Positions 2,845-63,900 of a DNA stretch of 64,000 bases are shown here, in pieces. The notes under the pieces were generated by a model. That model did not search any database. It saw nothing but the letters and a program-made list of their open reading frames with translations, and had not been told where the DNA came from. Position numbers and translations under genes: made by a program. Source of the DNA: Candidatus Aquidulcis sp. (GTDB lineage: Bacteria; Chloroflexota; Anaerolineae; Anaerolineales; UBA4823); contig DYIZ01000009.1 in assembly GCA_020723385.1 (NCBI GenBank), positions 3,676 to 67,675 of the forward strand. Direction: 5' to 3'. Each line of letters begins with the position of its first letter. The first letter of the stretch is position 1.

Positions 2845-2870
2845 TGTTTTACTAAAATCAACACTGACTT

Positions 2871-7904: not shown

Positions 7905-7919
7905 ATCCAGGAGGCGACG

Positions 7920-9303: not shown

Positions 9304-9312
9304 AAATAAACC

Positions 9313-9936
9313 ATGCTCAAAGCCTTTCACTTTTTCGGCCGCGCGATTTCCCTTTGGTGGCGTGAATGGGTGCATTTGACCTTCCTCAATATTGCCTGGC
9401 TGGCGTTGCAAGTCACCATCGTCGCCGGGCCGCCAGCTACCGCAGCAATGTACGCGGTTGCCCGGCGTTTGGCAGATGATGAATACCTGGAGCTGCGTCA
9501 TTATTGGCAGGCGATGCGCCAGATGTTCTGGCCAGCCTGGCGGTGGGGCGCAGTCAACCTGGTGGTGATCGGCGTCATCGTGGGTAACTTCTGGTTTTAT
9601 CAACATACCAGCGGCCTTCTAGTGACTCTCCTGCGGGTGATTTGGGCGACGATTGCCATCTACTGGTTTATCGCCAACCTGTTCTACTGGCCTTTCTGGC
9701 TGATCCAGGAAGACCACCGCATGGTTACAACTTATCGCAATTGCCTGTTGTTACTGGGCAAAAAGCCCGTACTCATCCTGACCATTTCTGTGCTTTGCGC
9801 CGTTTTGATCGTTGCCAGTATTCTCATCACCCTGCCGCTGGCGGCTTTGTTGATGATCTGGCTGGCCATTATCGGTATTGTGTTGGTCAAGGACGAAGTG
9901 AAGGGAATATCCAAACCAATTCAGAACACGGATTGA
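9313..9936 (+). CDS. DUF624 (YesL-like) membrane protein
   Basis: [32 protein letters not shown]... plus four or more TM helices. This family typically accompanies CUT1 sugar ABC operons. Confidence 0.7.
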
Positions 9937-9940
9937 AATA

Positions 9941-13059: not shown

Positions 13060-13086
13060 AGTGAACCTCAAAACCTGGAACTACCT

Positions 13087-22300: not shown

Positions 22301-24274
22301 TCATTCGAACAACCTATCCCTTTCCATCGCCTTGAACATATCTCCCGCTGATTTGAAGCGGTCGTTTGGATCTTTCTCCAAGGCCTGCAAGATGGCGTCA
22401 GCTACCCCATTGGGGATAGACGCCGTTACGTCGCGCGGGTCTGCGGGGGGTTGCTGCAAGTGAGCGAGCATCATCGCCCCGGGGTTATCGGCCAGAAACG
22501 GCAGTTGCCCGGTGAGCATCTGGTACAGCATCACCCCCAGGGCGTAGATGTCGGCGCGCCCGTCCACCTCGCCTGCCGAGCGGATCTGCTCGGGGGCCAT
22601 GTAATTCAGCGTGCCCATCATCAGCCCGGTTTTGGTCGCGCCCGTGTCGCCGCCCAACATCTTGGCGATGCCGAAATCCGTCAAGACCGCTGACAGATGA
22701 CCGATAACCGGCGACAAACTGACTCCTGCCATCGGCCGCCCGTCATCTGTCAATCGCAGCAACACATTCGACGGTTTCACATCTCGGTGAACCAGCCCCT
22801 GGGCGTGGGCGTAATCCAGCGCTTCGCATAAATCCCGGATGACAGGCCGGGCTTGCTCATAAGAGATTGGGCCGGAGTCGGTCATGAACTGCCCCAAATC
22901 CTTCCCCGAGATGAATTCCATAACCATGTAATAGGTGCCGCTCACATCCCCAAAATCGAACACCTGCACAATGTTCGGATGGCGCAAACTGGCGACCGAT
23001 TGCGCCTCACGCTCGAAACGGGCGCGGAAATCGGCGTCGGCGGCCAGGCTGGCGGGCAGGATTTTGATCGCTACCCAGCGGTTCAGCCGCGTGTGGCGGC
23101 CTTTGTACACCTCCGCCATGCCGCCGCGTCCCAATCGTTCGAGCACTTCGTACGGGCCAAACTGTGTGCCGGTGAGCAGCCCGGTGATCTGCGACGGCGA
23201 AGGTTGCACCGCTTGCTGGGAGGCCACATAACTGGCCCAGGCTTTCGACGGGTACTGATAAGTTTGACCGTCATAGACCAGCATACATTTTTGCGACAGG
23301 TCACGCAGCAAGCCGCGCAGCGTGGTATCGCTGGCGGCGCGCCAGGCCAGCTCGTTGATCTGGCGCAGCGTAGATTGCTCCGCGCCGGTCAGGTTGCGCC
23401 AGTAATATTCGAAGTGCGCGGACAATTCCTGCATGGCGCGGGTTTCGATGTCGCGTGAGACATTGGAGCCCCCAGGGGTTTCTAAAACCCCTGGGGGCTG
23501 GAGTATCTCGAAGGCGTGGAAGCAGGCGACTTGCAGCCCGAGTGGGAAGCCGCCTGCGAATTGGAAAATGAAATCTTCGACCGGTTGGGAGAAAGCCACC
23601 CCGGCGGCTTGCGCCGGCCCGCAGATGATCTGCCGCGCCTCGGCTTCGGATAGCAGCCCCAGGAACAGAGGGGCAAAGATGTTGAAGAACGGGCTGGACA
23701 AGATTTCCTGCGATTTGCCGGAATAGGTCAGTTGGATGAGCGGCCGGGCCGAAGCGGTGATGAAGGCCAGTTGATAGCGCCCGGCAGCCGAGCGCAGCGC
23801 GTTGAAGAAGTTGACATCCAGGCCGGAGTTGCTGCTCAACCGCTCGAATTCGTCGAGCATCAGGATCACTTTCAGGCTGCGTTGGTTCAACCGGCGGATT
23901 GCCCGCTCGAAGGCCAGACGCCCCGGGGTCGCCACCGCCGCGTCGAGAATGGCATCCCCTTCCAGCCCGCGATCGTCGAGCGTCGCCGCAATCTCTCCTG
24001 CCAATGCGCCGAAAATCTCGTCGTGGCTGCCCTCGCCGAGAACTTCACAATCCAGGTAAACCAGCAAATAATCCGTTCCCAGCCCCAATCGCTCCAGCGT
24101 TGCGGGCCGCATTAGGTGAAACAGCAGCGAAGTCTTGCCGATCTTGCGCGGGCCAACAATCGAGACCGACTGGTTGCCTTTAAGAAAGGCCGCGATCTCG
24201 CCCAACTCGTGTTCACGGCCAAAGAATAACTCGGGCGAGCGGACGGGGCCGCGGGAGACGTAGGGGTTGGTCAT
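22301..24274 (-). CDS. STAND/AAA-like ATPase fused to a C-terminal Hanks-type Ser/Thr protein kinase
   Basis: N-terminus NPYVSRGPVRSPELFFGREHE, Walker A GPRKIGKTS, Walker B ILMLDEFE. C-terminal kinase motifs GRGGMAEVYKG, VAIK, HRDVKPSNVL, DFGIAK, MAPE. Confidence 0.88.
   Translation of the reverse strand: MTNPYVSRGPVRSPELFFGREHELGEIAAFLKGNQSVSIVGPRKIGKTSLLFHLMRPATLERLGLGTDYLLVYLDCEVLGEGSHDEIFGALAGEIAATLDDRGLEGDAILDAAVATPGRLAFERAIRRLNQRSLKVILMLDEFERLSSNSGLDVNFFNALRSAAGRYQLAFITASARPLIQLTYSGKSQEILSSPFFNIFAPLFLGLLSEAEARQIICGPAQAAGVAFSQPVEDFIFQFAGGFPLGLQVACFHAFEILQPPGVLETPGGSNVSRDIETRAMQELSAHFEYYWRNLTGAEQSTLRQINELAWRAASDTTLRGLLRDLSQKCMLVYDGQTYQYPSKAWASYVASQQAVQPSPSQITGLLTGTQFGPYEVLERLGRGGMAEVYKGRHTRLNRWVAIKILPASLAADADFRARFEREAQSVASLRHPNIVQVFDFGDVSGTYYMVMEFISGKDLGQFMTDSGPISYEQARPVIRDLCEALDYAHAQGLVHRDVKPSNVLLRLTDDGRPMAGVSLSPVIGHLSAVLTDFGIAKMLGGDTGATKTGLMMGTLNYMAPEQIRSAGEVDGRADIYALGVMLYQMLTGQLPFLADNPGAMMLAHLQQPPADPRDVTASIPNGVADAILQALEKDPNDRFKSAGDMFKAMERDRLFE
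23467..23499. repeat. Perfect 15-bp-stem palindrome inside the ATPase-kinase coding sequence (in-frame)
   Basis: AGCCCCCAGGGGTTT-CTA-AAACCCCTGGGGGCT. It encodes ...LQPPGVLETPGGSN... in the linker between the ATPase core and the helical region. Confidence 0.85.
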
Positions 24275-24293
24275 AAGTTATTCCTCGAGATTT

Positions 24294-24368
24294 GGTAAAA
24301 CGTAATCCGTAAAACGTAATCCGTAAACCACCTCTTACGTTTTACGTCATTACGTTTTACGTGTTTAC
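24294..24368. repeat. Tandem-unit hairpin built from GTAAAACGTAAT units (2 direct + 2 inverted)
   Basis: GGTAAAACGTAATCCGTAAAACGTAATCCGTAAACC (24294-24329), ACCTC, TTACGTTTTACGTCATTACGTTTTACGTGTTTAC (24335-24368). It occupies most of the 97-bp spacer between the two ATPase genes. Confidence 0.8.
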
Positions 24369-24371
24369 TCT

Positions 24372-27300
24372 CTACAGCTTATTCTCGTCAATCACCCGGC
24401 TCAGCGACTTGTACTTCTCGACCCACAAGCCAAGCAAGCCCAATTTCCAGCGGTAGATTTCAGCGGCGGCGTCGGATTCGCGGCTTTCGATCAGGATATC
24501 GCGCAGCGACAGGTGGTGCAGGGCGTCGCCAATCGCCTGCCGCTCGACCGAGACGCCGCGCTCGGACAGGTAATCTACCAACGAGATGGCGGTGGCTTGC
24601 CCGGTGAGCGGCGCCATCCGGCTGAGGGCGGTCAGCACCAGCCGCTCTACGGAGGTGGATTCGGCCCACAGGTACATGAAATGCGCCTCGCCGGAAGCCA
24701 GGATTTCTTCGAGCGCATCGTTGACGTTGGCGACGGTGATGTAAGAATGCTGGGATTTGTTGTGCTGGTTGACCAGGCTGTGGCAGAGCAGTTGCAGGAA
24801 ATAGGGGTGGCCGGCAGTGACCCGCCAGATTTTATCCAGCGCCAGGTCGTCGTAACGCATGTTGAAGGGCGCGACCGGCTCCTGAATGAGCCGCATTGCC
24901 TCGGTTTTTTCGAGGAAACCGATGTGGCGGTACAGGCTTATATTGAACAGCACGTTCCAGTAATCGGCGGCCAACTCTTCCAGGCGGTGCGTACCGCAGA
25001 AGATGACGCTCAGGTTTTCGGTGTGCTGGATGAGATGGCGCAAGAAGCCGAAGATGGACGGCTCCAAATCGCCGCGGCGTACAGCCGATTCCAGCTCTTC
25101 GAATTCATCGAGCATGAGCAGCAAATGCCGCTCGCCGATGGCCTGGCGCACATTGGCCAGGAACACCCGCTCGAAATATGCAGCCGGGCTGTCGGCAAAA
25201 TCGCTCATTTCGGGCGGGGTGATTTCGAATTTCCGGTCTTCCAACGCGAAGGCAATTTCCGTCGCCAGGCTGAGAAAGAAGTTAGGCAGGCCAGGGTCGA
25301 GGCCGAGCGCCTGACCGTCAATGTACACGGCCTGGTAATTGTCACCCAGCCGGACGGGGAGCTGTTTGAGCAATGAGGTCTTGCCAGTGCGGCGCTGGCT
25401 GATGAGCACCAGGTTGTTGCGGTGCAGTGCAGCCAGGTTTTCCTTGACGAAGGCGATGGTGTCTTCCCGCCCAAAGAACAATGGGGAGCCGGTTTGCAGC
25501 GGCGTACCGACCACGTAGGGGTTGGGGATATGCTGGAACTCGCCCTCGGTGGGCAGCAGGCGGGTGATGTCGGCGAAGTTTTCAACCTGGTCGGGGCCGC
25601 GCGGGTCGGTATACAGGATGACAAAACGGGCGCGGAACTGGTCAACGCCCTTTTCGAGGCGCGGCCGCACCCGCAGGCGCACCTGTATTTCTTCGCCGGG
25701 AGCCACCCGCTCGACTTTGGCCTGGTGATCCACCACCGTGTAATCGGGGTCCGGGGCGATGGTGACGCGCAGGTTGAGCGCCGCGCCGCGCCCGTTATTC
25801 GTCAGGCAAAGCACCAGTGAGACAATATCATCCTGCCAGGTGTGGCGGGTGAGCAGTTGGCAGGCCAGTTGGGCACGGGTTTGCAGCTCGCCCATAGCCC
25901 CAGTGACCACCAGCAGCCAGCTTTCGGCGATACGCTGGACAAGCGGGCGGTCGGCGCTGCCCAGCTCGGTGCGGGCAAAGCGGTCAATGTGGCGCAGCCG
26001 CTCGACGGCGCCTGCCAGGTAAGCGAGCTTGTCTTGGGCGGTGTCCACCCGCTCGTAGGCGCCCAGGGCGCTGATGACGGGCTGGAATTGGGTGAGGGCG
26101 GCGCTGAGGTCTGAAAGGAATGGGGGGATAGGGGGCAGGGGATAGGGGGCAGGGGATTGGCTGGTCGTGGTTCTGTCCCCTGTTCCCTTATCCCCTATCC
26201 CCTTCTCCCCTGTAATTTGAGCAATCGAGTTGGCCTCCAGCGCCGAATGGCAGCGGCGGTAGAGCGAGAGCGCTTCGGCAGCGCCATTCCACTGACTGCT
26301 CTCGGGACTGACCAACTGGACGATGATATTGCGCAGCCCAACCGGCAATAATTCGGGGGTGGAGAAGCCGCTGAATAAATAGTAATAGCCTTCAGCCAGG
26401 GTTGCCAGCGATTGGCTGCGGCCTCCTTCCTGGTTGGTGAGCGCCCCCGGCAGGTTGGCAAGCACGCTGGCCGCGTCGGGATCTTTCCCGGCAGCCTGGG
26501 CTTGCACATGCAGGCGTTCCAGAACGCTGAATGGCTCCGTGATGAGCTGCTGCGCCAGGGTTTCGGCGCGCCCAATGGGTGAATCGCGGTACTCTTCCAG
26601 GCGATGCTCGGCTGCCTCGCGGCGTTTGACCTCGCTTTGGCGATCTTCGATCAGCCAGGCGACCTGGATGGATGTGCCCGCCTGGTCAGCCAGGTCGAGC
26701 AGGAGCGCCTGATCCTCGCGGGAGTAATCCTGCCCCGAGAGCCGCGGCCCCAGGGCGAGGACTCCTACCAGGGTGGAGGTAGCTTTTTCGGCCTGGAATC
26801 TTGGGGAGAGGGTCGTGCTTTCGATCTCCGGGGCGATCAATGGCACGAGCAATTTATAGACCGCGCCTTTGGGAAGCGAGACCACCTGCCCATTGTTCAG
26901 CCGGTTCATGGTGACGATGTCCAGCGGCAGCGCCGGATTCTCCTCGGGCAAGCCGTGCGCGTCGGCGATCTCGAATTTCTTGTCGGCTTGGAGCAGGTAG
27001 ACGGCTCCGTACTGGATGTGCAGCATCTCGGTGGTGCGCTCGACCAGGGTGTGGACCAACTCGCCTAAATCAATGATCGTGCGCACGCAGCGCGAGAATT
27101 CCATGAACATCTGCCGGAAATCCACTTTCTCCCGGTAGAAGCTGCGGTCAATGATGCTTTGCACGCGCCCGCGCATGGGCATGAACAAGGCCGCGATAAC
27201 CAGAGTGGTCACCGCAATGACCAGCGCGGATTGTGTCTGGGTGACCGAGCGCAGTAGCTGCTGAACGATAATGACCACGCCGAAATAGCCTGCCCCGAGC

Positions 27301-28322
27301 AGGCCGGTGACGACGCCGTAAACCAGGGCGCGGTTGATCAGCGTGTCAATATCCCACAGCCGGTAGTGCGTGATAGAGATGGTCAGCGCCAGCGGGACGA
27401 GCAGCAACAAAATCAGATAAATCGGCTGGCCGATAATGGTAAATAGAAGAGACGGCAGTCCGGGGGTCTTGAGCGGCGGCAGAACGAGGGGCGAGACATG
27501 AAAGTAGAAATATCCCAGGAACGCTCCTACCAAAGCGATCACCACCCATTTGGTTTGCTGGCGTTGGATGAGAGTATTGCAGCGATAACGCAAAATTTGA
27601 GCGAGGATGCCGCTGCCAAACCAGCCCAAAATGACAGCCAGCAGGCTGGCTATGCGGACGAAACCATAACCCCGTGCAAATACATCTGGATCACGTGAAA
27701 AAATGAATGCGAAAAAGCGGGCGGGAGTGGACATCTGGGATATGTCCGGCGAGTGACTGGGAATGATCGCCCACAGCGCCAGCCAGCCAACCCAAAACCA
27801 GGCCAGTAGACGCGTCCAGCGCGGGTAGAATTGTCCATCGGGGAAAAGATAAAACACCAGCAGGGTAGAGCCAACGCCAATCCCCTGGATGATCGTGATG
27901 ATCAAAGCGCGGCCGGGCGGTCCAATTTTGAGGACTTCCATATTCGGTGTAATGACGGTTGGGAAGGTAAGCAGCGCCAGGGAGAGCAGCACCGCCATCC
28001 AGTCGTCGGAGCGCCGCCAGAAGATGAGCGCCGCAGTGATGATGAAGAGCAGCAGGGTGAGCAGATCGAGAGCGGTTGTGTAAATGATGAATGCTTCGGG
28101 GCTGAATCCAAGCTGTTCGAGCCACATTCTTTCGATCTGTGGGATGATCGCGGCTTGCCCCATCCGGGCTGGAACCGAGATCGCCAGCATGAACAAGATG
28201 ATAGCTGCCAGCGCCATCCATACCGTGCGAATGAAATGGAGCGCTGCGCCGCGCAGCGGCGGGCGTTCTGTGGTAATCGGTTGGACGGCCTTGATGGGTG
28301 GGTGGGGGAGGGGATGGCTCAT
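24372..28322 (-). CDS. Polytopic membrane / GAF-like sensor protein with a C-terminal STAND/AAA-like ATPase module
   Basis: About 10 hydrophobic helices in res 30-390, then IDRSFYREKVDF. A GAF-like block follows (…YGAVYLLQADKKFEIADAHGLP…LVGVLALGPRLSGQDYSREDQALLLDLADQAG). The C-terminus reads NPYVVGTPLQTGSPLFFGRED, SQRRTGKTS, LLMLDEFEELE. Confidence 0.85.
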   Translation of the reverse strand: MSHPLPHPPIKAVQPITTERPPLRGAALHFIRTVWMALAAIILFMLAISVPARMGQAAIIPQIERMWLEQLGFSPEAFIIYTTALDLLTLLLFIITAALIFWRRSDDWMAVLLSLALLTFPTVITPNMEVLKIGPPGRALIITIIQGIGVGSTLLVFYLFPDGQFYPRWTRLLAWFWVGWLALWAIIPSHSPDISQMSTPARFFAFIFSRDPDVFARGYGFVRIASLLAVILGWFGSGILAQILRYRCNTLIQRQQTKWVVIALVGAFLGYFYFHVSPLVLPPLKTPGLPSLLFTIIGQPIYLILLLLVPLALTISITHYRLWDIDTLINRALVYGVVTGLLGAGYFGVVIIVQQLLRSVTQTQSALVIAVTTLVIAALFMPMRGRVQSIIDRSFYREKVDFRQMFMEFSRCVRTIIDLGELVHTLVERTTEMLHIQYGAVYLLQADKKFEIADAHGLPEENPALPLDIVTMNRLNNGQVVSLPKGAVYKLLVPLIAPEIESTTLSPRFQAEKATSTLVGVLALGPRLSGQDYSREDQALLLDLADQAGTSIQVAWLIEDRQSEVKRREAAEHRLEEYRDSPIGRAETLAQQLITEPFSVLERLHVQAQAAGKDPDAASVLANLPGALTNQEGGRSQSLATLAEGYYYLFSGFSTPELLPVGLRNIIVQLVSPESSQWNGAAEALSLYRRCHSALEANSIAQITGEKGIGDKGTGDRTTTSQSPAPYPLPPIPPFLSDLSAALTQFQPVISALGAYERVDTAQDKLAYLAGAVERLRHIDRFARTELGSADRPLVQRIAESWLLVVTGAMGELQTRAQLACQLLTRHTWQDDIVSLVLCLTNNGRGAALNLRVTIAPDPDYTVVDHQAKVERVAPGEEIQVRLRVRPRLEKGVDQFRARFVILYTDPRGPDQVENFADITRLLPTEGEFQHIPNPYVVGTPLQTGSPLFFGREDTIAFVKENLAALHRNNLVLISQRRTGKTSLLKQLPVRLGDNYQAVYIDGQALGLDPGLPNFFLSLATEIAFALEDRKFEITPPEMSDFADSPAAYFERVFLANVRQAIGERHLLLMLDEFEELESAVRRGDLEPSIFGFLRHLIQHTENLSVIFCGTHRLEELAADYWNVLFNISLYRHIGFLEKTEAMRLIQEPVAPFNMRYDDLALDKIWRVTAGHPYFLQLLCHSLVNQHNKSQHSYITVANVNDALEEILASGEAHFMYLWAESTSVERLVLTALSRMAPLTGQATAISLVDYLSERGVSVERQAIGDALHHLSLRDILIESRESDAAAEIYRWKLGLLGLWVEKYKSLSRVIDENKL
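26122..26212. repeat. Tandem-unit inverted repeat (GGGGATAGGGGGCAG units) inside the 1316-aa coding sequence, in-frame
   Basis: GGGGGGATAGGGGGCAGGGGATAGGGGGCAGGGGA (26122-26156) faces TCCCCTGTTCCCTTATCCCCTATCCCCTTCTCCCCTG (26176-26212). It encodes GEKGIGDKGTGDRTTTSQSPAPYPLPPIPP. Confidence 0.75.
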
Positions 28323-40158: not shown

Positions 40159-41256
40159 TTAGGAGGTATATAACAGGATAATCCCAACCCACAAAGGAAT
40201 TAAACCCCCGAGCATGATGAATGCCAGAAGCGCCAGCCCCCAGGTGATCCAATCAACGTCGAGCGGGTTTTCTTCTGGTTCAACTGCTGGCCGGAAGGCG
40301 GCGGCGGTGTGAACGGGCGGTACAGGGCCTGGCTGCTGCGGTTTGGGCCGGGAGATCGGCGGGAGCGGTTGTCTGGGCTGGGGAGGTTCCGGCTCGGAGA
40401 TCGCCTCTGGCACAGCCACGAGGCGCGTCGGGCGGTTGAAGCTCATCAACACCCGTCCTAGCTGGTCGGCTGTGCGGTATCGTTGTGAAGGTTCTTTGGA
40501 CAATATCTTGAGCAGCACCTGTTCGAGCGTGGGCGGGATGTGCGGGTTGACCTGCCGCGGGCGGGGCGGCGGCGCGAAGCGGTGCAGACGCGCTAACTCG
40601 GTAGCAGATTCTGCCGTGAAGGGAAGTTGACCGGTGAGCATTTCGTAAATGACCACACCCAGCGAGTATACGTCTGAGGCCGGGGAGGGCGCGCCGCCCG
40701 CGGCTTGTTCAGGCGAGAAGAATTGCGGCGACCCCCAAACGACATCGGTTTTTTCATCGGGATGGATCGAAGCCAGGGCGCGGGCGATGCCGAAATCCGC
40801 CACTTTCAGGCGTTTGTCGGGGGTGATGAGCATGTTGTGCGGCTTTACGTCGCAGTGTACCAGCCCGGCGCGGTGAGCATACCCAATCCCGGCGCAGGCC
40901 TGGATGATGAGAGGCATGGCCTCCTCGACGGTGAATCGTCCCCGTTGTTGCAGGATCGTTTTCAGGTCAGTGCCAGGCACGTATTCCATCACAATAAACA
41001 AGCGTCCCGCATCCAGCCCGAAATCGTGCACGGTGACGATATTGGGATGGGTGAGGTTGGCAGCGGCTTTCGCTTCTTGATGGAATCGCTCGCGGAAAGC
41101 TGAATCTGCGGAGAAATCTTCGCGCAGCACTTTGATCGCTACAGTGCGCTCCAGGGTGAGATCGCGTGCCTGATAGACGACCGCCATGCCGCCGCTGCCC
41201 AGGCGGTGCTCCAGGCGATAACGGTTGTTGAGGAGGGTGGGTTCGGTCATCAACAC
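40159..41256 (-). CDS. Hanks-type Ser/Thr protein kinase with a Pro-rich linker and C-terminal TM anchor
   Basis: GSGGMAVVYQARD, VAIKVL, HCDVKPHNML, DFGIAR, SPEQ. The C-terminus reads WGLALLAFIMLGGLIPLWVGIILLY. Confidence 0.88.
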   Translation of the reverse strand: MLMTEPTLLNNRYRLEHRLGSGGMAVVYQARDLTLERTVAIKVLREDFSADSAFRERFHQEAKAAANLTHPNIVTVHDFGLDAGRLFIVMEYVPGTDLKTILQQRGRFTVEEAMPLIIQACAGIGYAHRAGLVHCDVKPHNMLITPDKRLKVADFGIARALASIHPDEKTDVVWGSPQFFSPEQAAGGAPSPASDVYSLGVVIYEMLTGQLPFTAESATELARLHRFAPPPRPRQVNPHIPPTLEQVLLKILSKEPSQRYRTADQLGRVLMSFNRPTRLVAVPEAISEPEPPQPRQPLPPISRPKPQQPGPVPPVHTAAAFRPAVEPEENPLDVDWITWGLALLAFIMLGGLIPLWVGIILLYTS

Positions 41257-49780: not shown

Positions 49781-51676
49781 TTATGCAGTCAGCGCATAGA
49801 TGCGATGATCCGTAGAACCGATATAAATAATATCATCGCTGGCGATGGCAGTGCCAGTGATGGGTTTTGTCGTGTTGAATTTCCACCGCAGACGGCCTGT
49901 CCGATATTCGAGACAGTATACGTGTCCGTCTACCGAACCGAAATAGACTGAATCTTTGTAAATGATGGGTGAGCTGGTGATCTGGTTATCGGCGCCGTAG
50001 TGCCAGACATCTTTCGATGATCGGACGTCAATGCAATACAGGTTGCTGTCGGCTGACCCGGTGAACACGAAATTTTCGGCAACGCATGGCGTCGAAATGG
50101 ATGGTTTTCCCATGCGAAATCGCCAAATGACGAAGCCGGTTTTGGCATCGAGAGCGTAGACAACCGAATCCATCGCGGTAAAGAAGACGATGCCTTGCGA
50201 TATCGTTGCAGAGGAAGTGATCGCGCGCTTGGCTTTGAAGCGCCACTTGATCGAGCCGCGAAAATCGAGACAAAAGAAATCGCCGTTCTCGCTGCCAAAA
50301 TAGACGAAGTCGTTTTGCACCAATGGGGTCGAGCGAATGGGGGAACCGGCTTCCATCCGCCAGGCGCGTCTCCCGGAGATTGCATTGACGGCGTGGATGG
50401 AGCCATCATCGGAGCCAACAAAGATATGCCCTTCCGCTGCAAACGGTGAGGAGCGCACCGGGCCTTCTGTGTAATAGGTCCAGACGATCTTTCCGGAGCG
50501 CGCCGAGATGGCGTAGAGGCATTTATCCTCGGAACCGAACACCGCATTTCCGTCTTGGACAACCGGTTTGCTGACAATGCCGCCGTCGGTTGGGAATTTC
50601 CAGATAAATTCACCGGAAGCAGCGTTCAGCGCATACAGGTTGTTATCGTAGGATCCAATGTAGATGACGCCATTGTTGTAAGTGGGGGTGCCCCGAATTT
50701 CGTCTTCGCATTCGAAGCTCCACAGGCATTTGGTGCGATTATCCCCTTCGCCAATTAAAGCCGTTGCAGATGAAAACTGCGGCAGCGCACCGGTTTTGCG
50801 TGCAACGTTCAAAAGAGCATCCTTCATGGCCTGCGTGCTGGGAAAGCGGCTTTCGGGATTGTACTGAAGCGAGGTGTATATGAGCGTTTCCAATTCCAGG
50901 GAGACACTGGGGTTGATCTGGCGAATGGGACGCTCGCTGAAGGAGAATGGCGGCTCGAGGCGGGGATCGCGGCGGGTCAGTACGTGGTGGACCGTGGCCC
51001 CAAGCGCGTAGATGTCTGCTAACGGGGTGGCTTCACCCTTATACTGCTCCGGGGGCGAGTAACCTTCGGTTCCAATCATCGTCCCCTTTTGGCCGGTTTG
51101 GAATGTCTTGGCAATCCCGAAGTCAACCAACACGATATGGTTGTGGGGATTGACCATGACGTTGGATGGCTTCATATCCCGGAAGATAATCGGCTCCGGC
51201 TTGTGATTGTGGAGATAACTCAAAACGTCGCAGAGCTCGACCGCCCATTGAATGACCTGGGCTTCCGCAATGAAGCCCTGGCTTTCGTTCAGCAGCGCTT
51301 CCAGATCCTTACCCTCGATGAATTCCAGGATCAGGTAGGATCGTTCGTTATGGGTGAAGTAATCGTAAATGCGGGGAATTGCCGGATGGTTCAGCGTGGC
51401 CAGGATGTTTGCTTCCCGCTCGAAGTTCCGTACAATCGTATCGCGGATAATTTGATCGCGGGCCTGGTTGACCATCTCTTTGACAGCAACCTGCTTGACG
51501 ACATTGGGGAAGTGCAAATCACGGGCGCGATAGACTGCTCCCATCCCACCGACGCCAACCACACTCTGCACCAGATACCGGTTGATCAGGGTAGTTCCGG
51601 GCTGAAGTTGTTGCTCAGGCTTACGACCTGAAGCTGGCTCAAGGTTTTGAGTGATACGTTGTGTATCCAGGGCCAA
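49781..51676 (-). CDS. Hanks-type Ser/Thr kinase fused to a PQQ-like beta-propeller
   Basis: Kinase GVGGMGAVYRARD, VAVKE, FRDMKPSNVM, DFGIAK, SPPE. The C-terminus has about 7 repeats of the form G…V…Y.GS.D..LYA.DA.TG….W. Confidence 0.9.
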   Translation of the reverse strand: MALDTQRITQNLEPASGRKPEQQLQPGTTLINRYLVQSVVGVGGMGAVYRARDLHFPNVVKQVAVKEMVNQARDQIIRDTIVRNFEREANILATLNHPAIPRIYDYFTHNERSYLILEFIEGKDLEALLNESQGFIAEAQVIQWAVELCDVLSYLHNHKPEPIIFRDMKPSNVMVNPHNHIVLVDFGIAKTFQTGQKGTMIGTEGYSPPEQYKGEATPLADIYALGATVHHVLTRRDPRLEPPFSFSERPIRQINPSVSLELETLIYTSLQYNPESRFPSTQAMKDALLNVARKTGALPQFSSATALIGEGDNRTKCLWSFECEDEIRGTPTYNNGVIYIGSYDNNLYALNAASGEFIWKFPTDGGIVSKPVVQDGNAVFGSEDKCLYAISARSGKIVWTYYTEGPVRSSPFAAEGHIFVGSDDGSIHAVNAISGRRAWRMEAGSPIRSTPLVQNDFVYFGSENGDFFCLDFRGSIKWRFKAKRAITSSATISQGIVFFTAMDSVVYALDAKTGFVIWRFRMGKPSISTPCVAENFVFTGSADSNLYCIDVRSSKDVWHYGADNQITSSPIIYKDSVYFGSVDGHVYCLEYRTGRLRWKFNTTKPITGTAIASDDIIYIGSTDHRIYALTA

Positions 51677-55254: not shown

Positions 55255-57837
55255 ATGTTCAGAAAACGACGCAATCCAATCATCACAATCGTCGTATTGT
55301 TTGCCATTTTGAGTAATTCCACCCCGGTCAACCCGATAGTCGCTGCACCGAATAATTATCCTTATACTCGAACGCCGAGCGATAATTCGACCGCGTACCT
55401 GCCAATAATCAGGAAACCTCAGCAAGTGACTCTCCATTTTTGGGAGCAAGAAGACGATATAGCTGATGCTTTATTAGATGATTTAATCCATGATTTTGAG
55501 TTGACTCATCCCAACACCGTCATAAAACGGATCCATTTCACAAATGATGATCTGCTTCAGCAATTTGAATCGGCTTCGTTGTTGGAATCGCCCCCAGAAG
55601 TTGTACGTGTTCCCAACGATTTTACGGACAATTTCGTTGAACCGGGATTCCTGGCCGAAATTGGGGAAATCATTGAGCCATCCTATTTCGACGATTTCAT
55701 TGCGGGTTCGCTCGAGGCGGTAACCATCAGTCAAACGATTTGGGGACTCCCGGATAACTATGGCAATCACTTGATGCTGTTTTACAACAAAGACCTGATT
55801 CCCACCCCTCCTCTCACCTTCGATGAATTGATCACCCAAGCTCTGACGCTGACAACCGGTGATATCCAGGGTTTTGCCTACAACCTGAACGAACCCTCTT
55901 GGGGCGCTGGTTTTTGGGGAGCCTTTGGAGGCTGGCCGCTGGATGAATACGACCAGCCTCAGTTCGATCAAACCTTCGTTGATTACCTGATCTTCGTCAA
56001 GTCGCTCAAGGACAATGGGGTTGTGTCGTCGGAGTGTGATTTCACTTGCGCCGATTTCCTCTTCAGAAGCGGCCAGATGGCCATGATTATCAACGGAGAA
56101 TGGACATTGGGAGATTACTATCTGATTTTGAGAGATAAACTGGGTACAGCCCCGGTACCCCCAATCAATGGACACACCTACACGGAAATGACATCTGGTA
56201 AATATTATATGGTCGCCGCTCCGGTGCAAGACGATCCTGTCAAAAAAGCCGCGGTAGCTGAATTCATCCTTTACATGACCTCTTCCCAGGCGCAGCAACG
56301 ATGGCTCGAAACGTTTGGGAGACTGCCGTCCAATAAATCTGTCGCTAACGATCCCTTGATAACCAGCGATCCTCTCCTGGCAGGCTCGATGGCTGCCCTG
56401 GCAAATGGGCGTGGATACCCGCCTGCGAAAGAGATGATCTGCGCCTTGAACGCCTGGCGTCCCAATCTTGAAGGTGTGATGCAGGGCACTCTCTCCCCAG
56501 AAGAGGCAGCTCAGGCTGCACAATTATATGTGGACATGTGCGATGATGTGCCTGTGACCCTTGCTTTTTGGGAGCAAGAAAGCGATGAAGTTGATGATTT
56601 TATAGACGACTTGATTGCCGAATTCGAAGTAATACATCCCTTCATTACAGTAAGTCGAACCCATTATGCTAATGAAGATCTCCGTGATCAGTTTATGACT
56701 GCTTCGCTGGCGGAGGCTCCCCCAGAAGTTGTACGTGTTCCCAATGATTTTACTTATGATTTTGCTGAGCCAGGATTCTTGGCCGAGATGAGTGCAATTG
56801 TTGATCCCGTTTATTTCAACGAATTCTTTGCGGGTTCATTGGAGCCGGCAACTCTCGATCAAACGATCTGGGGCCTCCCGGATAACTATGGGAATCATTT
56901 GATGCTGTATTACAACAAGGATCTGATTGCCTCGCCGCCGCTGACCTTCGAAGAATTGATCACCCAGGCTCTGACCCTGACCGTTGGTGATATCCAGGGT
57001 TTTGCTTTTAACCTGAATGAGCCATTTTGGGGCGCTGGCTTTTGGGGCGCTTTTGGCGGTTGGCCGCTGGATGAATACGATCAGCCGCAGTTCGATAACC
57101 AAACCTTTGTTGATTACTTGACCTTCGTCAAATCGCTGAAGATCAACGGAGTCGTGCCGGAAGAATGTGACTACGCCTGCGCTGATACGCTTTTCAAAGA
57201 TGGTCAGGCGGCCATGATCATCAATGGCGATTGGGCGATGAAGGATTACGATCAAGCGTTAGGCGACAAGCTCGGCACAGCCCCAGTGCCCCCAATCAAT
57301 GGACATGCCTATACAGAAATGACCGCCGGTAAGTATTACATGGTTTCCTCACCCGTAATAGACGATCCGGATAAAAAAGCCGCGGTAGCCAAATTCGTCC
57401 TATTCATGACCTCCGCCCAGACGCAGCGACGATGGCTCGAAACGTTTGGAAAACTGCCATCCAATATATCTGTTGCCAACGACCCATTGATCACCGGCGA
57501 CCCGCTCCTGGCAGGCTCGATGGCTGCCCTGGCAAATGGGCGCGGAATGCCCCCCGCGAAAGAGATGCGCTGTGCCTGGAATGCCTGGCGTCCCAATCTG
57601 GAAGGTGTCATGCAGGGATCTCTCTCGCCCCAGGATGCAGCCCAGGCCGCACAAGAAGCCGCCGACGATTGTATCGCCACATTGTATCCGCACCCGACGA
57701 GCACCCCCATCCTGCCGAGGGGAACTAATTCGCCGACAACCGTATTGCCATATTGGGGCTTTGACCCATTTGTTCCGGAGTCCCCATTCACCCTCATTCG
57801 CGCCTTCGTGATCCATTCGTGGATGGTTGATCCTTGA
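55255..57837 (+). CDS. ABC transporter (CUT1-type) solute-binding protein with two tandem binding domains; no adjacent permease genes
   Basis: VTLHFWEQEDD… (nt 55426) recurs as VTLAFWEQESD… (nt 56554), a period of 1128 nt (376 aa), with clear collinear similarity throughout. The start is either ATG 55255 or 55237. Confidence 0.85.
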   Translation: MFRKRRNPIITIVVLFAILSNSTPVNPIVAAPNNYPYTRTPSDNSTAYLPIIRKPQQVTLHFWEQEDDIADALLDDLIHDFELTHPNTVIKRIHFTNDDLLQQFESASLLESPPEVVRVPNDFTDNFVEPGFLAEIGEIIEPSYFDDFIAGSLEAVTISQTIWGLPDNYGNHLMLFYNKDLIPTPPLTFDELITQALTLTTGDIQGFAYNLNEPSWGAGFWGAFGGWPLDEYDQPQFDQTFVDYLIFVKSLKDNGVVSSECDFTCADFLFRSGQMAMIINGEWTLGDYYLILRDKLGTAPVPPINGHTYTEMTSGKYYMVAAPVQDDPVKKAAVAEFILYMTSSQAQQRWLETFGRLPSNKSVANDPLITSDPLLAGSMAALANGRGYPPAKEMICALNAWRPNLEGVMQGTLSPEEAAQAAQLYVDMCDDVPVTLAFWEQESDEVDDFIDDLIAEFEVIHPFITVSRTHYANEDLRDQFMTASLAEAPPEVVRVPNDFTYDFAEPGFLAEMSAIVDPVYFNEFFAGSLEPATLDQTIWGLPDNYGNHLMLYYNKDLIASPPLTFEELITQALTLTVGDIQGFAFNLNEPFWGAGFWGAFGGWPLDEYDQPQFDNQTFVDYLTFVKSLKINGVVPEECDYACADTLFKDGQAAMIINGDWAMKDYDQALGDKLGTAPVPPINGHAYTEMTAGKYYMVSSPVIDDPDKKAAVAKFVLFMTSAQTQRRWLETFGKLPSNISVANDPLITGDPLLAGSMAALANGRGMPPAKEMRCAWNAWRPNLEGVMQGSLSPQDAAQAAQEAADDCIATLYPHPTSTPILPRGTNSPTTVLPYWGFDPFVPESPFTLIRAFVIHSWMVDP

Positions 57838-57935
57838 TTTTGCACTCATGTGCTTGCTCCTCCAATCAATCTCAGGTACACTGTCGTTAGCAGCGAGTCA
57901 GATACACATCTCCCGGTTTCACTGGAGACCGCCCC

Positions 57936-60900
57936 GTGGTCTGTCCGAAGTGCCAACACACTGAGTTCGACTCTCACGCGCCGTGCCCCAGGTGCGGCTT
58001 CAGCGGCGACGCGGCGCGGCTCGAACGCCTCTCGCAGCTAAACTTTTTGCTCGATGAGCTGGGCAAGTGGGGGGATGTGCCCGCCAGCGAGCGCGAAAAT
58101 CTTCGCCGGATTTATGGCCTGCAGCGGCGCAAGCTCGAAGTCGAGTTGAATCTGCGCCAGCCGCCCCTCGACCCGAAAGCGGCGGCAGAATCCCGGCTGA
58201 AACTCATTCAACTCACTGGTTTTCTGCAAGCCATCCCGCAATTCGTCAACGACCGGGTGCTGGCAGTTAATGTCGCCCAGGCGCTGCGCGATTATTTGTA
58301 CGCCGAGCGCCAAACCCTCGCCGACCAGCTCCTCGACGCGCCTCCCACCCCCGAGCCGATGGCCGGAATAGCTGCCCTGGCGCGCTTGAAATTCCGCCTC
58401 GAATCGCTCGAAAAGTTGCACAACGATGGCAAGCTGCTTGCATCCGATAAAACCTTTACCCGCATTCAGGCCGAACTGAATCGCGCCATAGGGCAGTACG
58501 AAGACTCCCTCGGCTTGCGCCACCGCCCCGCGCTTTCCCCCTCTCGCCCCTCGCCCCACCCTCCACCCTCCACCCTCCACCCTCCACAACCCTCACACTC
58601 CGCCCCTCGCCCCTCGGCCCCCGCGCCTCGCCCCCCGCGTCCCCCGCTCACCTTCGACCGCATCTGGCGCACGCTCCTCTCCGAGCGCACTCTCAACGTC
58701 ATGCTCTTCCTCGGCGTGGCGCTGCTCTTCGCCGCGGCTGTCTCGCTCGTCGTCTGGAACTGGCAGGCCTTCCCGCCCTGGCTGCAACTGACCTTCATCG
58801 CCCTGTTCACCGGCATTTTCTACGCCCTGGGTTGGTACGTGCGCACCCGCATGAAACTGCGCGGCTCCGGCCTGGCGCTGACCGCTGTGGCCTCGCTGCT
58901 CGTCCCGCTCGATTTCTACGTCGTTTATCTCTACGGCGATTTCCCCCGCGCCATCTGGCCAGATGTCTGGCTGCTGGCATCGGGCGTGTGCCTGGTTTTG
59001 TATTTGCTCACCGCGCTTTTCGTACAGGCTGAATTCTTCGGCTACCTGGTTGCGCTGGCTGGCGGGAGCGCCCTGGCTGCGGCTATGCAGGTAGGCGGGA
59101 TCAGCGCCGATGTGTGGCACGGCGTGCTGGGTGTGCTGGCCTTAGCGTATGCCTTCGCCGGGGAGGGATTGTTCTCGGCGCGCGGGCGCTGGCGGCTGCT
59201 GGCTGGGCCGTTGTGGCGTTCAGCGATGGCTGGCGCGGCGGTGCTGATGCTGTTGATGCTCGGACGTGGCTGGCAGACGGACGCCAGCGATGCGTTTTAC
59301 CTGGCATTGGCAGGGGATTGGTGGCTTGGTGGGATTATCTTCGCCCTGGGAGTGGCCCGCTTCCGCAGCCGGACGATTGCGTTGGCCGCCGCGATCAGCT
59401 TTCCCGCCGCAGCGCTGCTCACCCAGCGGGTAATCTTCTCCCATTGGGGCATCGAGACCGCCTGGAATGGCGTGGGCCTGGCGCTGCTGGCCCCCGTTTA
59501 CCAGTGGGTCGGGTGGAAGTTGATCGTGCCTGCCGTAAAACAACCCTCCGCGGGGAGTGATGAAAAACCGCCCGCCCCGGACGCAGCCCAATCGAAGGCG
59601 GCCGATTTCCGCCGCGCCTGCGGGCGGATTATTCTTGGGATGGGAATTTTAGTGATGGCGGTTGCCGCTGCCTGGTCGCTGGCCGACGCCAGCGCGGTGG
59701 GCGTGGTTCACCCCCTGTTGGCGGCGAGTGTTGCGCTGATTGCCGCGTTGTGGCGGCGTCCCTGGCTGACGCTGATCGCTAGTGGATTGCTGCTCTCCGG
59801 CTCGGCCGGTCTGACCTCCGCCCTGGGCGGGGCGCTGTCGCAATTGGGTCTGACCTGGTCGCTGCTGTCGGTTTTGCACGTGATCGCAGCGGTGAGGCTG
59901 GGGAGCGGAGGGCGAGGGGCGGAGGGCGAGGGCCGAAGGGCGAAGGCCGCCAGGCAGGCTGAGCGTAGTCGAAGCCCGCTGCTCCTCTCCGGCTGGATCA
60001 TCGCCGCGCTGGCGCTGCTGCCGCCATTGTTAATGCTCGACCGCCCGATCTCCACCAACGCCCTCGGTAACTGGATTTTGCTCAACGGCTGGCTGGCCTA
60101 CCTGTCGGCGAAAGAATCGCCCCGGCGCACGTCAGGCTGGCTCGATGCGCGCCTGTTCCAGTGGTTGTCGGCGCTGTCTATCCTGCCGTGGGTGTGGCTG
60201 CTGTGGGAGCGTTGGAAGCCTGCCGACAGCCAGTTGCCATTGGCTTATAGCGCGACCGCCTGGGCGCTGCTGGCGTTTGGGCTGTGGGCGCAGCGACGCG
60301 CTCATGCTTTCGGTTTGCCGTGGAAGGTTGCGGCGCACCTGGCAGCATTACTGGCGCTGGCGGTCAGCGTCGTCTATTACGATCCGCTCTGGCTGGCGAT
60401 CACATTCTTGCTGGCTTCGGCGTTCTATTTCGCGGCCGCGCCGCTGCTCCACGAGCGCTGGTGGCTAGCCGCCGGGGGAGCAACCTTCGCCGTGGGTTGG
60501 ATGGAAGGGTTGGACTGGCTGAAGCTGCCCGCCGATTTCCAAAGCCTGGCGCTGGCGGCCGTCGTATTGGCTTTCGTCGCGGCGGGCAGCCTGTTGCAGC
60601 GCCGCCGGGTTCATTCGAGGGAATTTTTCTGGCCGCTGTACCTTGCGGCGCTGGCTATCGGATTGGCGGCCTTCGGTTGGGGATTGATCAATATTCTCGA
60701 TACCGGAGGCAGCGACGCTGCGCTGACCTGGGCGGCGGTGGGGCAGTTGGTTTTGGCCGTCGCGGCAGGCTGGTACGCCTGGCTAACGGGAAGTGAGCAT
60801 TACGGGCATATCGCTGCCTGGCTGGGCGTGTTCGCCGGGGCGCTGCTTGCCTCTGCATACAGCCGCGGCAGCGGGCGCTCGGCGGCGCTGGCCGCGCTGA

Positions 60901-63900
60901 CTGCGGTGGTGTACGTGCTGGCGGAGCGGGGAATGTATTGGGTTGGGAGGGGCAGCAGGGGCAGACACGTAGGTCTGCCCATACGGGGGTGGCCCCTGCG
61001 GGGGTTGCCCCTGCGTGGGTGGGCGCGGCGGGCGTGGCGATTGTTCCGCCGCCCGCTGATCGTGGCGGGCTGGGCAGTATCCGTTGGCGCGATTGGGCTG
61101 TGCCTGCTGCGCAATCTCGTGCTGCTGCATGGCGGCCCGACGCGCGAAACCTGGGCTATTGTTGGGCTGACGTTGGTGACGGCGCTGTACGCAGTTTCGG
61201 CGGTGATGTATCGCAAGCAGAAGAAGATTGCCCCACGGTTCGTCTGGCTGGCGGCGGCGCTGATCTTCGCCCCATGGACGCTGCTCACTCACCAGGGGTT
61301 ATATTTTTGGCCGCGACCGGCTGCGCCCGATTACGCTATCAGTTGGATGATCCTGGCGCTGCTGGAAATTGGCCTGGGGGCGGGATTATCTGCCGTGTTG
61401 GGCGATCCCAACCGGCGTTGGACTCGCCCGCTGTGGGCGATCCCCCATCTCTTGACGCCGTTCGCCCTGCTGTGGGGCATCGCCAGCCCGCAGGCATCGT
61501 CAGTCTCAGTGATGTTGGGGATCGTCTTTTATCTCATCGCGACGGCGCTGGATTACATCAATCGCCCATCGCCCGATGCGGCGCCGCGCGCCCGCTTCCT
61601 GTACCCGGCGGCGCTGCTCATCCCGCTGTGGGCGGTGTATCTGCTGGCTCGATACGTTCCCGACGCGCCGCAGACGACTTACGGCTGGCTGGTATTGGGC
61701 TTCACGCTGCCCATGCTCGTGGCGGGGGTGTGGCTGGCGGAGCGGGAAAAGGTTTTTCGCATTCCATTTTACGCCGCGGCTTATCTCTCGATGCTGGTTG
61801 GCACGGCGCTGCTGGCCCACGACCGCCCGGCGCTGATCGGGGCGCTGCTGTTCGATGTGCTGGTGGCGCTGGTATCGGCCTGGCAGTTCCGCGAGAGCCT
61901 TTGGCTATATCTGGTCTGCGCCGAGCTGCCCGCTGCGCTGCTGCTGGCCTCGCTGGAAATCGGCATCCCGGTTGACCGGCAAGGTTGGGTGGCGATTGCC
62001 ATCGCGGGCGTATATTTGCTGGCGGCGCGGCTGCTTGGCAGAAACCTGACAGGTCTATCCCGCAGCCCGATCAAACCCGGTGACGCACAAAAGACAACAA
62101 CTGAAGCAGGTCTGAGTATCAAGAAAGACCTGTCAGGTCTTGACTTCATCTCCCCATTGCTCGTCACCGCCTTCGCGCTGACGGCGATCGGACTGCCGCT
62201 GTCCAGCCGCGACCGGGTGGGGGCGCTCGTCGGGTATGGGGCGGCGGCGGTGATCTACGCGCTGACCTCGGTCTGGCTGCGGCAGCCGCTGCTGCTCGCC
62301 CCGGCTATCGGACTGGCGGCTGTGCCGTATTGGGTGGGGGTGCTGGAATTGGGTGTGGCGCAGCGTGAGTATGGGCTGTCGGTCTGGCCGTTCATTGCGA
62401 TTGTGCTGCTGCTGGCCTATGGGATTGATTATTTGTCCCGGCCTGGTGGAGAACCCCCTCCCCAGCCATCCCCCATTTCGACTACGGAAATGGGGGGAAG
62501 CGGAGGGGGCCAGGGGTTCCCGTGGTATTCCCCGGAGCGGTGGCTTTCCGCGTTGTGGGATCGCATCAACGGTTGGTGGGCGCTGTATTTCTACGCGGCA
62601 GCCTACCTCGGCGCGGCGGCGAGTGTGGCGTTGTCGCTGGCTTACCCCGACCGGCAGCCGATCGCGCTGGCGCTGGCGGCAATCGTGTTCAGCCTGGCGC
62701 TGTGGCGCTTCCGGCTGCGCGGCTGGCTGCTGATTGCGGCGGGCGCGTGGCAGTTGTCGGTGTTGGCGGCTATCTACTGGTATTTTTGGGCGAACGAGAT
62801 GCCCCTCGGCTGGGCGACGACCGCCCTGGCCTTTTTGCCCGTCGTGTGGGTCACGGCGATCTGCGGGCTGGTGTTGCAGCGCCAATTGGGCGAGCCGTCT
62901 CCCCTGGGGCTGGGCGGGGCAGCGCTTTTCAAAGGCTGGTCGCGCCCGTTGTATCTGCTGGCGGCGGTGGATGTCGTTCTCACGCAGACCGGCGCATTCT
63001 CGTCGAGCGGCGATAGCGCCTGGGTGACGTTATCGAACGCGCTGTTGCTGGCGGCGCTGGCGACAGCCTGGGCGTCGCGACCTCTCGGCTGGCTGTCGGC
63101 GGGATTGGGGTTGCTCTCACTGATCCAGGGTTTAGCATGGGTGAAAGCCGACGAGACCATTTGGCCGTGGGCGCTGGCGCTGCTGGCATTGGGGTATGGC
63201 TCGGCGGGTTACGGACTGAAAGCGGCGCGGCAGATCCAGGCCAAAACCTGGATCCCGGCCTGGGTGGAGCCGCTGTCAGGAGTGTGGGAGCGCCCGCTGC
63301 GCCTGGGCGGTTGGTGGCTGTCGTTCGCCAGTCTGCTTCCGGCGTTGTTGAACGGCGCAATCGAAATCATCAAGGTTGTGGTATTGCGGAGCCTGCCCAA
63401 CGAATTCCTCGAGATGGCATCCATCCGGTCGAACATCCCTCAAGTTCAGATGACGGTAGCCGTCTTTGCCATTTTGGGCTTATTCTACCTCCTATCCGCT
63501 TTTGCCGACCGGCGGCGCTGGCTGGGGTATGGGGCGGTGGGATTGCTGCTGATGGCCTGGTCGCTGGAATTTTTGTTGGTGTGGGGCGAGCGCGATGTGC
63601 AGGTGTATGTTCTCCCGGCGGGGCTGTATCTTCTGGGGATCGGCTGGCTGGAGTGGCGCTTCGGCAGCCGCACGCTGGCGCGCTGGGTGGACTATGCCGC
63701 TCTGCTGCTCCTGCTCGGCCCGGCCTTCTACCAATCATTGGGCGATAACGGCTGGCGCTATGCGCTGGTGATGGGCGCAGCCGGTTTGTTCGTCATCTGG
63801 TGGGGCAGCGCCCGGCGGCTGCGGCGCTTCCTGTACGTGGGCGTCCTCGGGGTGACGCTGGACATCGCCGGGCAGCTCATCGAGCCACTGCTGTCGGTCA

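Follow-up and report, generated by a model that had tools for sequence, protein, structure and literature searches.

The window analysed here is a stretch of 64,000 nucleotides (nt) of contig DYIZ01000009.1 from Candidatus Aquidulcis sp., and the gene at 55255–57837 within it encodes a solute-binding protein (SBP) in which two complete MalE-type modules, the products of an old internal duplication, are joined in one chain. The public copy of this protein on the NCBI contig (P0001, 860 amino acids (aa)) starts at the ATG at 55255. The repeats begin at nt 55426 (aa 64) and nt 56554 (aa 440), which confirms the tandem duplication with a 1128-nt period described in an earlier reading made from the DNA letters by themselves (the sequence-only reading), and the copies are collinear, as that reading had also stated, with one single-residue gap across 359 aa. 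Alignment of the two halves by BLASTP gave 272 identical residues out of 359 (76%, one 1-aa gap, E = 0), and at the DNA level they are 77.4% identical over 1101 nt by BLASTN. Taken singly, each half matches both PF13416 (SBP_bac_8) and PF01547 (SBP_bac_1) over the full length, with scores of 103.9 and 70.5 bits for the N-terminal module (module A) and 105.9 and 73.8 bits for the C-terminal module (module B) against cutoffs of 27 and 26, respectively. The nonsynonymous and synonymous distances between the halves are dN = 0.15 and dS = 0.93 (dN/dS = 0.16), which indicates that the duplication is old and that both copies have been under purifying selection. No recent gene conversion was found between the halves of this gene, and since the longest identical DNA run is only 38 nt, the repeat is neither an assembly artefact nor the result of recent conversion.

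The genes upstream are upp, ruvB and those for a cNMP-binding protein and a kinase-propeller protein, and the gene downstream encodes a giant zinc-ribbon membrane protein. The sequence-only reading had noted that no transporter genes adjoin the SBP gene, and the Pfam annotation of the neighbours agrees, with no permease or ATPase among them; none was found near the gene within 46 kb on the contig. The sole permease pair in the window (6804–9194) lies beside another double SBP gene (4172–6718). The coordinates of the features are compiled in Table 1.

Table 1. Features of the tandem SBP gene and of the gene that follows it (positions in the window).
Feature	Position	Strand	Details
Tandem MalE-type SBP gene	55255..57837	+	ATG at 55255 gives 860 aa; open from GTG at 55237, giving 866 aa
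N-terminal export/anchor region (predicted)	55255..55425	+	Arg/Lys-rich start, hydrophobic helix (ORF aa 15-26), ~35-aa disordered Pro/Thr-rich spacer, no Cys
Module A, complete SBP fold (aa 64-439)	55426..56553	+	Pfam, BLASTP of halves, tree, AlphaFold2; faster-evolving copy
Inter-module connection, ~5 residues (aa 435-439)	56539..56553	+	AlphaFold2: helix 421-434, strand 440-446
Module B, conservative copy (aa 440-812)	56554..57672	+	Pfam, contact mapping, tree, pLDDT >90
C-terminal tail, ~54 aa (aa 813-866)	57673..57837	+	Pro/Thr-rich, predicted disordered; pLDDT ~33 at aa 826-866
Spacer between SBP gene and giant open reading frame (ORF)	57838..57935	+	98 nt; no terminator-like site detected
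Giant zinc-ribbon polytopic membrane protein	57936..64000, runs off window	+	GTG start; 2030 aa in source

Structure prediction, which had been proposed as a check, returned the two-lobe periplasmic-binding-protein fold for each module but left their arrangement undefined. The AlphaFold2 model was computed from a 31-sequence alignment and has a mean predicted local distance difference test score (pLDDT) of 78 and a predicted template modelling score (pTM) of 0.59, a value too low to define how the modules are oriented to each other. Module B was modelled with pLDDT >90 and module A with pLDDT 60–90 and the same order of secondary structure elements; the alignment was shallow over module A in this run, the single-module sequences having been aligned to module B. 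The top Foldseek matches in the PDB were 6FFL, 2GHB, 2ZYO and 6DTU, and the matches are MalE-type proteins with maltotriose, maltotetraose or cyclodextrins bound; no structure spanning both modules was found among them. The best solved relatives by sequence are likewise maltodextrin binders (6FFL, 2GH9, Thermotoga MalE1/2 and 2ZYK). In the NCBIfam collection both modules are nearest to MalE and GanS, far under the equivalog cutoffs, and scores of 67.2 (module A) and 86.4 bits (module B) against the MalE equivalog NF007011 (cutoff 291 bits) mean that the protein is not an equivalog of E. coli MalE.

Sugar-contact residues were mapped by sequence alignment to E. coli MalE, whose contacts we take to be D14, K15, K42, E44, W62, D65, R66, E111, E153, Y155, W230, W340, Y341 and R344, and the residue identities were confirmed by script. 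Module B agrees with the clade consensus at D504, N553, E595, F597, W666, W781, R785 and R483, and departs from it among the mapped contacts only at the equivalents of K42 (Ala to Asp) and of Y341 (Asp to Asn, a change shared by modules A and B). Module A has lost three clade-invariant residues, through R107L, F221S (the Y155 equivalent) and W404L (the W340 equivalent). At the 200 columns that are nearly invariant in 24 canonical relatives, 46 changes were counted in module A and 29 in module B, and the 25 columns changed in both modules are concentrated in the first segment of the N-lobe, at MalE equivalents 13–106. From its homology and from the gene neighbourhoods of its relatives, the ligand would be an alpha-glucan oligosaccharide, bound chiefly by module B. 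Module B is expected to bind maltodextrin-like oligosaccharides in the usual Venus-flytrap way, and the loss of two aromatic stacking residues and one Arg from module A would leave this module with altered or weakened binding, in which case it may serve either as a spacer or as an additional binding site with another specificity.

The protein was compared with the maltodextrin-binding proteins of known structure, namely E. coli MalE, Thermotoga MalE1/2 (6DTU, 2GHA), Thermus 2GH9, Bdellovibrio 6FFL and the Thermoactinomyces cyclo/maltodextrin-binding protein 2ZYO. It resembles these in the two-lobe fold of each module (template modelling score 0.75–0.88, normalised to the target), in sequence homology down to E = 4e-50 (to 6FFL), in having relatives linked to alpha-glucan enzymes, and in the equivalents of D65, E153, Y155 (as Phe), W230, W340 and R344 that module B keeps. 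Unlike MalE, it consists of two modules, has no lipobox and is encoded without an adjoining malFG-type permease, and its module A lacks the equivalents of Y155 and W340.

A word-indexed homologue search returned 23 relatives and missed the closest single-module ones. A profile of the protein's own clade, on the other hand, matched 424 clusters at E <= 1e-40, and the best 120 of these were inspected. All 120 are single-module proteins of 369–447 aa with 62–71% identity to module B, and they come from Anaerolineae, for example Thermanaerothrix. A lipobox is present in 118 of them and the remaining two are N-terminally truncated. The genes for P0298, P0304 and P0412 are each followed by two permease genes and then by a gene for a ~1030-aa enzyme with GH57 and Glucodextran_C domains, and that for P0317 is followed by two permease genes and then by alpha-amylases; the gene behind P0384 is truncated, with 487+ aa before the end of the contig. 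A scan of the GTDB representatives gave only three single-module relatives, at 44–46% identity. This association with two permeases and alpha-glucan enzymes indicates that the ancestral context of the module was an ATP-binding cassette (ABC) importer for maltodextrin or alpha-glucan. The parent lineage is thus a single-module lipoprotein of Anaerolineae, encoded in an operon in which the SBP is followed by a MalF-like permease, a MalG-like permease and a GH57 enzyme or alpha-amylase. The GH57-linked Anaerolineae family, which includes P0298 and the Thermanaerothrix protein P0323 ('sugar ABC transporter substrate-binding protein'), is the family of origin of the tandem gene, as judged by whole-module identity and by a shared clade with 90% bootstrap. 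Its members are single-module lipoproteins encoded together with permeases, whereas the tandem protein is duplicated, orphaned and without the lipoprotein signal, and has diverged at 29–46 of the 200 clade-invariant positions.

Among the 23 relatives from the word-indexed search were four homo-tandems (P0002–P0005, 44–47% identity), one hetero-tandem (P0006), fusions in which a kinase is joined through a transmembrane helix to an SBP (P0007 and P0008, 59–64%), fusions of an SBP with Bmp domains and a fusion of an amylase with an SBP. The homo-tandems P0002–P0005 resemble the protein studied here in that a single secreted chain contains two homologous modules of the MalE type. At all four of their loci a gene for GH57 (with Glucodextran_C) lies on the opposite strand and is followed by permease, permease and tandem SBP, and a lipobox is present in three of the four proteins, P0002 appearing to be N-terminally truncated. 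The halves of P0003 (locus L004, 6731–9328) share a tract of 696 nt with 100% identity and those of P0004 (locus L003, 6016–8586) a tract of 578 nt, also 100% identical, and both tracts are flanked by sequence of 72–80% identity. In these two proteins the halves are kept alike by concerted evolution through gene conversion, which explains why halves cluster within each protein although the tandem state is common to the whole P0002–P0005 clade. The operon-linked tandems differ from the gene at 55255 in their separate duplication, their homogenised halves, and their adjoining permeases and GH57.

Two neighbour-joining trees of the individual modules were built with bootstrap support. The halves of the 55255 protein pair with each other at 100% bootstrap, and the halves of the other tandems are also nearest to each other, at 86–100% in the first tree and 61–100% in the second. 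The 55255 pair is nested in a clade with 90% bootstrap that consists mostly of canonical single-module proteins and stands apart from the P0002–P0005 clade; the stem of the pair has a length of 0.18, and the branches leading to modules A and B have lengths of 0.21 and 0.08, respectively. This nesting among canonical singles shows that the duplication is independent both of that in the operon-linked tandem clade and of that in the protein at 4172. The operon-linked tandems undergo clear intragenic gene conversion, whereas the 55255 copy escaped it and its modules diverged asymmetrically.

The double SBP at 4172–6718 has a lipobox and a period of 1203 nt, and its halves are 84.6% identical in amino acid sequence and 83% at the nucleotide level. 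The corresponding values of 76% and 77% for the 55255 gene are lower, as had been read from the sequence, and lend support to the view that its duplication was the older or the faster-diverging event. The two proteins had been placed in different, unrelated families. They are indeed no more than distant paralogues, with 21% identity over 230 aa (E = 1.5e-4), but "unrelated" is too strong, for both match PF01547. The claim that doubling happened twice independently within 64 kb was upheld. The gene at 4172 heads a complete sugar-utilisation locus (1690–13740) in which two LacI regulators lie upstream and two permeases, a DUF624 protein, GH130, GH65 and a HAD hydrolase follow; GH130 and GH65 are phosphorylases and the hydrolase is beta-phosphoglucomutase-like.

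The tandem arrangement in itself proved to be common, an outcome that the sequence-only reading had itself named as one that would count against it. When 1.84 billion representatives were searched exhaustively with module B (HMMER), 3805 relatives were obtained, and about 24 of the best 150, in which architecture was counted, contain two to four matched stretches and have lengths near 800, 1170 or 1580 aa. A sample was confirmed with Pfam and includes proteins with two (P0160, P0195), three (P0174) and four modules (P0169). About one sixth of the best family representatives are thus free-standing SBPs with 2–4 MalE-like modules, and multi-module MalE-like SBPs are a recurrent, common architecture. 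Phrase searches of the open literature (for example 'tandem SBP') for free-standing tandem sugar SBPs returned nothing relevant, with only the permease-fused GlnPQ and OpuA characterised. In GlnPQ of Lactococcus lactis, tandem binding domains of different affinities and specificities serve one importer, which provides a precedent for the use of such a duplication (PMC8025302). The 55255 protein is like GlnPQ in having two binding domains in tandem; those of GlnPQ belong to an amino-acid-binding class of SBP and are covalently fused to the permease, whereas the 55255 protein is free-standing, of the sugar type and without a BPD_transp_1 domain. Other combinations of the module were also seen. 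In P0006 it is joined to a different SBP_bac_1 module, P0009–P0011 are Bmp/PnrA-type fusions with one or two domains, and P0013 and P0014 carry two nearly identical Bmp copies; P0173 is a fusion of a MalK-like ATPase with an SBP and P0252 one of an SBP with a permease.

The termini and the linker of the 55255 protein set it apart from its canonical relatives. In the AlphaFold2 model a helix spans residues 15–26 and is followed by a segment with pLDDT <50 (aa 26–59). There is no lipobox in the protein and no Cys before residue 267, and all eight conserved Cys positions, four per module, are present. The predicted N-terminal hydrophobic segment, either uncleaved or of the Sec type, would leave the protein tethered to the surface or released; Arg-rich transmembrane anchors without a lipobox also occur in the more distant relatives P0012 and P0015–P0020. 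The connection between the modules has ~5 residues vs ~17–27 in the same stretch of the operon-linked tandems, measured without the terminal helix, and by module envelopes the gap is 17 residues vs 34–44. Canonical relatives stop soon after the CV/IATL motif and have no C-terminal tail. The tail of the 55255 protein weakly resembles the linker of P0006 together with the first strand of its second module (GFDPFVPESPFTLI...W vs GFVPIPVDKPVTITIW). A third-module remnant was considered as the origin of the tail; the local alignment between the tail and the P0006 linker outscores all of 500 shuffled sequences, but the homologous CIATL/CVATL motif inflates this score and such an origin is not established.

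The G+C content at third codon positions (GC3) of the gene is 0.546, with both modules alike, and is the lowest among 15 separate window genes measured, the other 14 having values of 0.63–0.80 (0.788 for the giant ORF); across the 98 nt between the SBP gene and the giant ORF it jumps from 0.546 to 0.79. The low GC3 suggests that the gene arrived from elsewhere, and together with the long branch, the missing lipobox and the housekeeping surroundings it makes the gene probably a displaced paralogue that was acquired horizontally. A displaced SBP gene might also be drifting towards a pseudogene, and the orphan position, the atypical composition, the missing lipobox, the odd disordered tail of ~54 aa and the loss of conserved contact residues from module A could all be read in this way. 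Such decay is nevertheless very unlikely, given that the frame of 866 codons is intact, that dN/dS between the halves is 0.16 at a dS near 0.9, that module B has nearly all of its contacts and pLDDT >90, and that none of the eight conserved Cys positions has been lost.

The sequence-only reading had drawn attention to the giant ORF that follows directly after the SBP gene, where permeases would be expected, at a distance of 99 bp; the order is as described and the spacer is of 98 nt. If the two formed a functional pair, the tandem SBP would serve the giant zinc-ribbon membrane protein as its extracellular receptor. Both genes lie on the same strand with this short spacer and no detectable terminator between them, which makes co-transcription possible, and no permeases are found near the SBP gene. 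The giant protein shows ~40 transmembrane-like peaks, an N-terminal C4 zinc ribbon, a helical region and a Pro-rich linker, and has no Pfam match; the NCBIfam 'SCO7613 C-terminal domain' was matched at aa 1842–2015. Its family comprises more than 160 full-length homologue clusters of 1750–2330 aa with 34–51% identity, and all of those with a source name are from Chloroflexota. Adjacency to an SBP is not conserved in the loci of this family that were sampled. A metagenome scan with a 30-sequence alignment of the giant ORF yielded 75 loci, 39 of them with the 5' end, and at none of the 36 of these with at least 1.5 kb of upstream sequence was an SBP-like ORF found upstream (0/36). At locus L012 a single, unrelated SBP lies 2.5 kb downstream of the giant-ORF homologue. 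The Pfam annotation of 13 upstream neighbours gave unrelated families, which include S49 peptidase, acyl-CoA dehydrogenase, TctA, LepA, TIR, beta-helix, PD-(D/E)XK and TIM barrel, with no SBP among them. From the other side, no giant-ORF homologue was present at any of the nine SBP-homologue loci examined (four tandem and five single-module); eight of the nine have two BPD_transp_1 permeases with GH57 or GH13 enzymes, and the cut gene at the ninth (P0384) is consistent with transporter linkage. The genes conserved next to the giant gene are found downstream of it, where on the same strand at no fewer than 22 loci it is accompanied by genes for a ~440-aa PrsW-family intramembrane protease and for a ~190-aa ORF without a Pfam match. 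The difference in GC3 (0.55 for the SBP gene vs 0.79 for the giant ORF) also points to different histories.

The comparison of neighbourhoods, which had been put forward as a check, therefore gave no co-occurrence of the SBP with the giant ORF, and the functional link proposed between them did not survive it. Since none of the 36 loci has an upstream SBP, the adjacency is peculiar to this genome; it is an accident, and the giant ORF stands outside the SBP's system. Pairing of the two proteins is accordingly regarded as extremely improbable. The identity of the protein, its origin and its lack of association with the giant ORF, taken together, are put at about three chances in four. The genes upstream of the SBP gene in the window (upp, ruvB, the cNMP-binding protein and the kinase) were also considered as possible syntenic neighbours of the giant ORF, and no such synteny was seen across the scanned loci. 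The giant ORF, the PrsW-type protease and the ~190-aa ORF look like a conserved, uncharacterised three-gene membrane module. The protease gene often overlaps the stop codon of the giant gene.

Orphan SBPs generally feed a permease encoded elsewhere, and sharing of a permease is the commoner case. The role that we favour for the tandem protein, at slightly less than even odds, is that of an accessory binding protein for a carbohydrate ABC permease whose gene lies in another part of the genome. Several points weigh against this account. No partner permease was identified in the window, where the only pair, which was considered as the missing partner, shares just 25–31% identity with the permeases encoded beside the tandem homologues, so that homology gives it no support. 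In both modules, N-lobe columns that do not vary among the transporter-linked relatives have changed, which argues against docking to a permease of the ancestral type. The linker of ~5 residues and the missing lipid anchor are likewise unlike the operon-linked tandems. As to the ligand, the contact mapping relies on established E. coli MalE positions and a sequence alignment rather than on a ligand-bound structure, and specificity is judged from homology and from the gene neighbourhoods of relatives.

A role outside transport, as a sugar sensor or capture protein, is a real possibility although the odds are against it, and pairing with the giant ORF would make up at most a small part of it. 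The sequence-only reading had raised a receptor for something other than an ABC importer; the version with the giant ORF finds no support, and several derived features of the protein are compatible with a receptor that serves no importer. Fusions of a Ser/Thr kinase, a transmembrane helix and a MalE-type SBP were found in P0007 (locus L008, 10001–12283), P0008, P0148, P0225 and P0233, and within the clade of the 55255 module such fusion (P0007, P0008, P0148) has arisen at least twice, which means that the module has demonstrably been used as a sensor in this lineage. At the P0007 locus three kinase genes are clustered, and a PP2C phosphatase is encoded close by. The set of columns changed in the 55255 modules overlaps with the set changed in two or more of the three kinase-fused modules, with odds ratios of 4.7 and 5.9 (p ~3e-4), in a test that was exploratory, used sequence columns only and included just three kinase-fused modules, two of which are long-branch neighbours of the 55255 pair (70% bootstrap). 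The overlap with the columns changed in the operon-linked tandems was not significant (odds ratios 1.2 and 0.6). The derived residues differ between the 55255 modules and the kinase fusions in 13 of the 16 shared columns, which indicates independent relaxation, while at most of these columns P0002, P0003 and P0147 have the canonical residue. The 16 columns correspond to MalE positions 34, 36, 48, 49, 56, 67, 71, 73, 75, 85, 90, 149, 215, 218, 221 and 233. Most plausibly, the changed N-lobe columns reflect the independent loss of a constraint limited to transporter-linked SBPs, which would be that of the permease-docking surface.

In ChvE-VirA, LuxP-LuxQ, CBP-ChiS and AgtB-AgtS, as in MBP-Tar, the SBP is the ligand-loaded activator of a membrane receptor, and the kinase fusions of the same clade form a parallel to these SBP-dependent sensors. 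A stand-alone sugar sensor or co-receptor of this kind would be loaded with an alpha-glucan oligosaccharide and would then bind a membrane signalling protein such as a Ser/Thr kinase. The kinase fusions and the overlap with their changed columns, which has no counterpart in the operon-linked tandems, speak for it, as do the lost lipobox, the orphan gene and the long branch, and SBP-dependent activation of sensor kinases has been documented (PMC11113362, PMC12704726). We nevertheless consider it rather unlikely. In contrast to the known sensors, the gene has no adjoining kinase or chemoreceptor gene and no receptor partner has been identified, the nearest kinase gene being 3.5 kb off on the other strand; with three kinase modules in the test, shared ancestry or long-branch effects could explain the overlap; the N-terminal anchor does not resemble the juxtamembrane segments of the kinases and no remnant of a kinase was found upstream; and orphan SBPs that share a permease are the commoner case. 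A kinase-SBP fusion that had lost its kinase was also considered as the origin of the gene and rejected, as the anchor similarity was matched by 282–637 of 1000 shuffles and tblastn gave no kinase remnant upstream. The most specific form of the sensor proposal, in which a free-standing, membrane-tethered two-module protein has left ABC transport altogether, module B detecting the alpha-glucan while the degenerate module A and the diverged N-lobe patch make up a new interface for a signalling partner such as a Ser/Thr kinase or another membrane protein, is improbable. Were the protein a sensor, it would correspond, acting in trans, to the kinase-fused SBP sensors of its own clade, and the signature of N-lobe columns (MalE equivalents 34–90) would separate transport SBPs from sensory ones.

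The 55255 locus itself matters little, as it holds a MalE-type binding protein whose tandem form is one of many and whose link to the giant protein is not real. Of wider use may be its Anaerolineae SBP clade, in which the same module is found in four settings, namely as a transporter lipoprotein, in homo- and hetero-tandems, in Bmp-type fusions and as the ectodomain of Ser/Thr kinases. These settings form a natural series for recognising surface positions that are needed only for docking to the permease. The window is also rich in genes for signalling proteins, which lie at 22301–28322, 40159–41256 and 49781–51676, and encode a STAND NTPase-kinase fusion, a 1316-aa protein with GAF and STAND domains, a 365-aa Ser/Thr kinase and a kinase with a PQQ-type beta-propeller; if the SBP were sensory, these proteins could, as a matter of speculation, be candidate partners.

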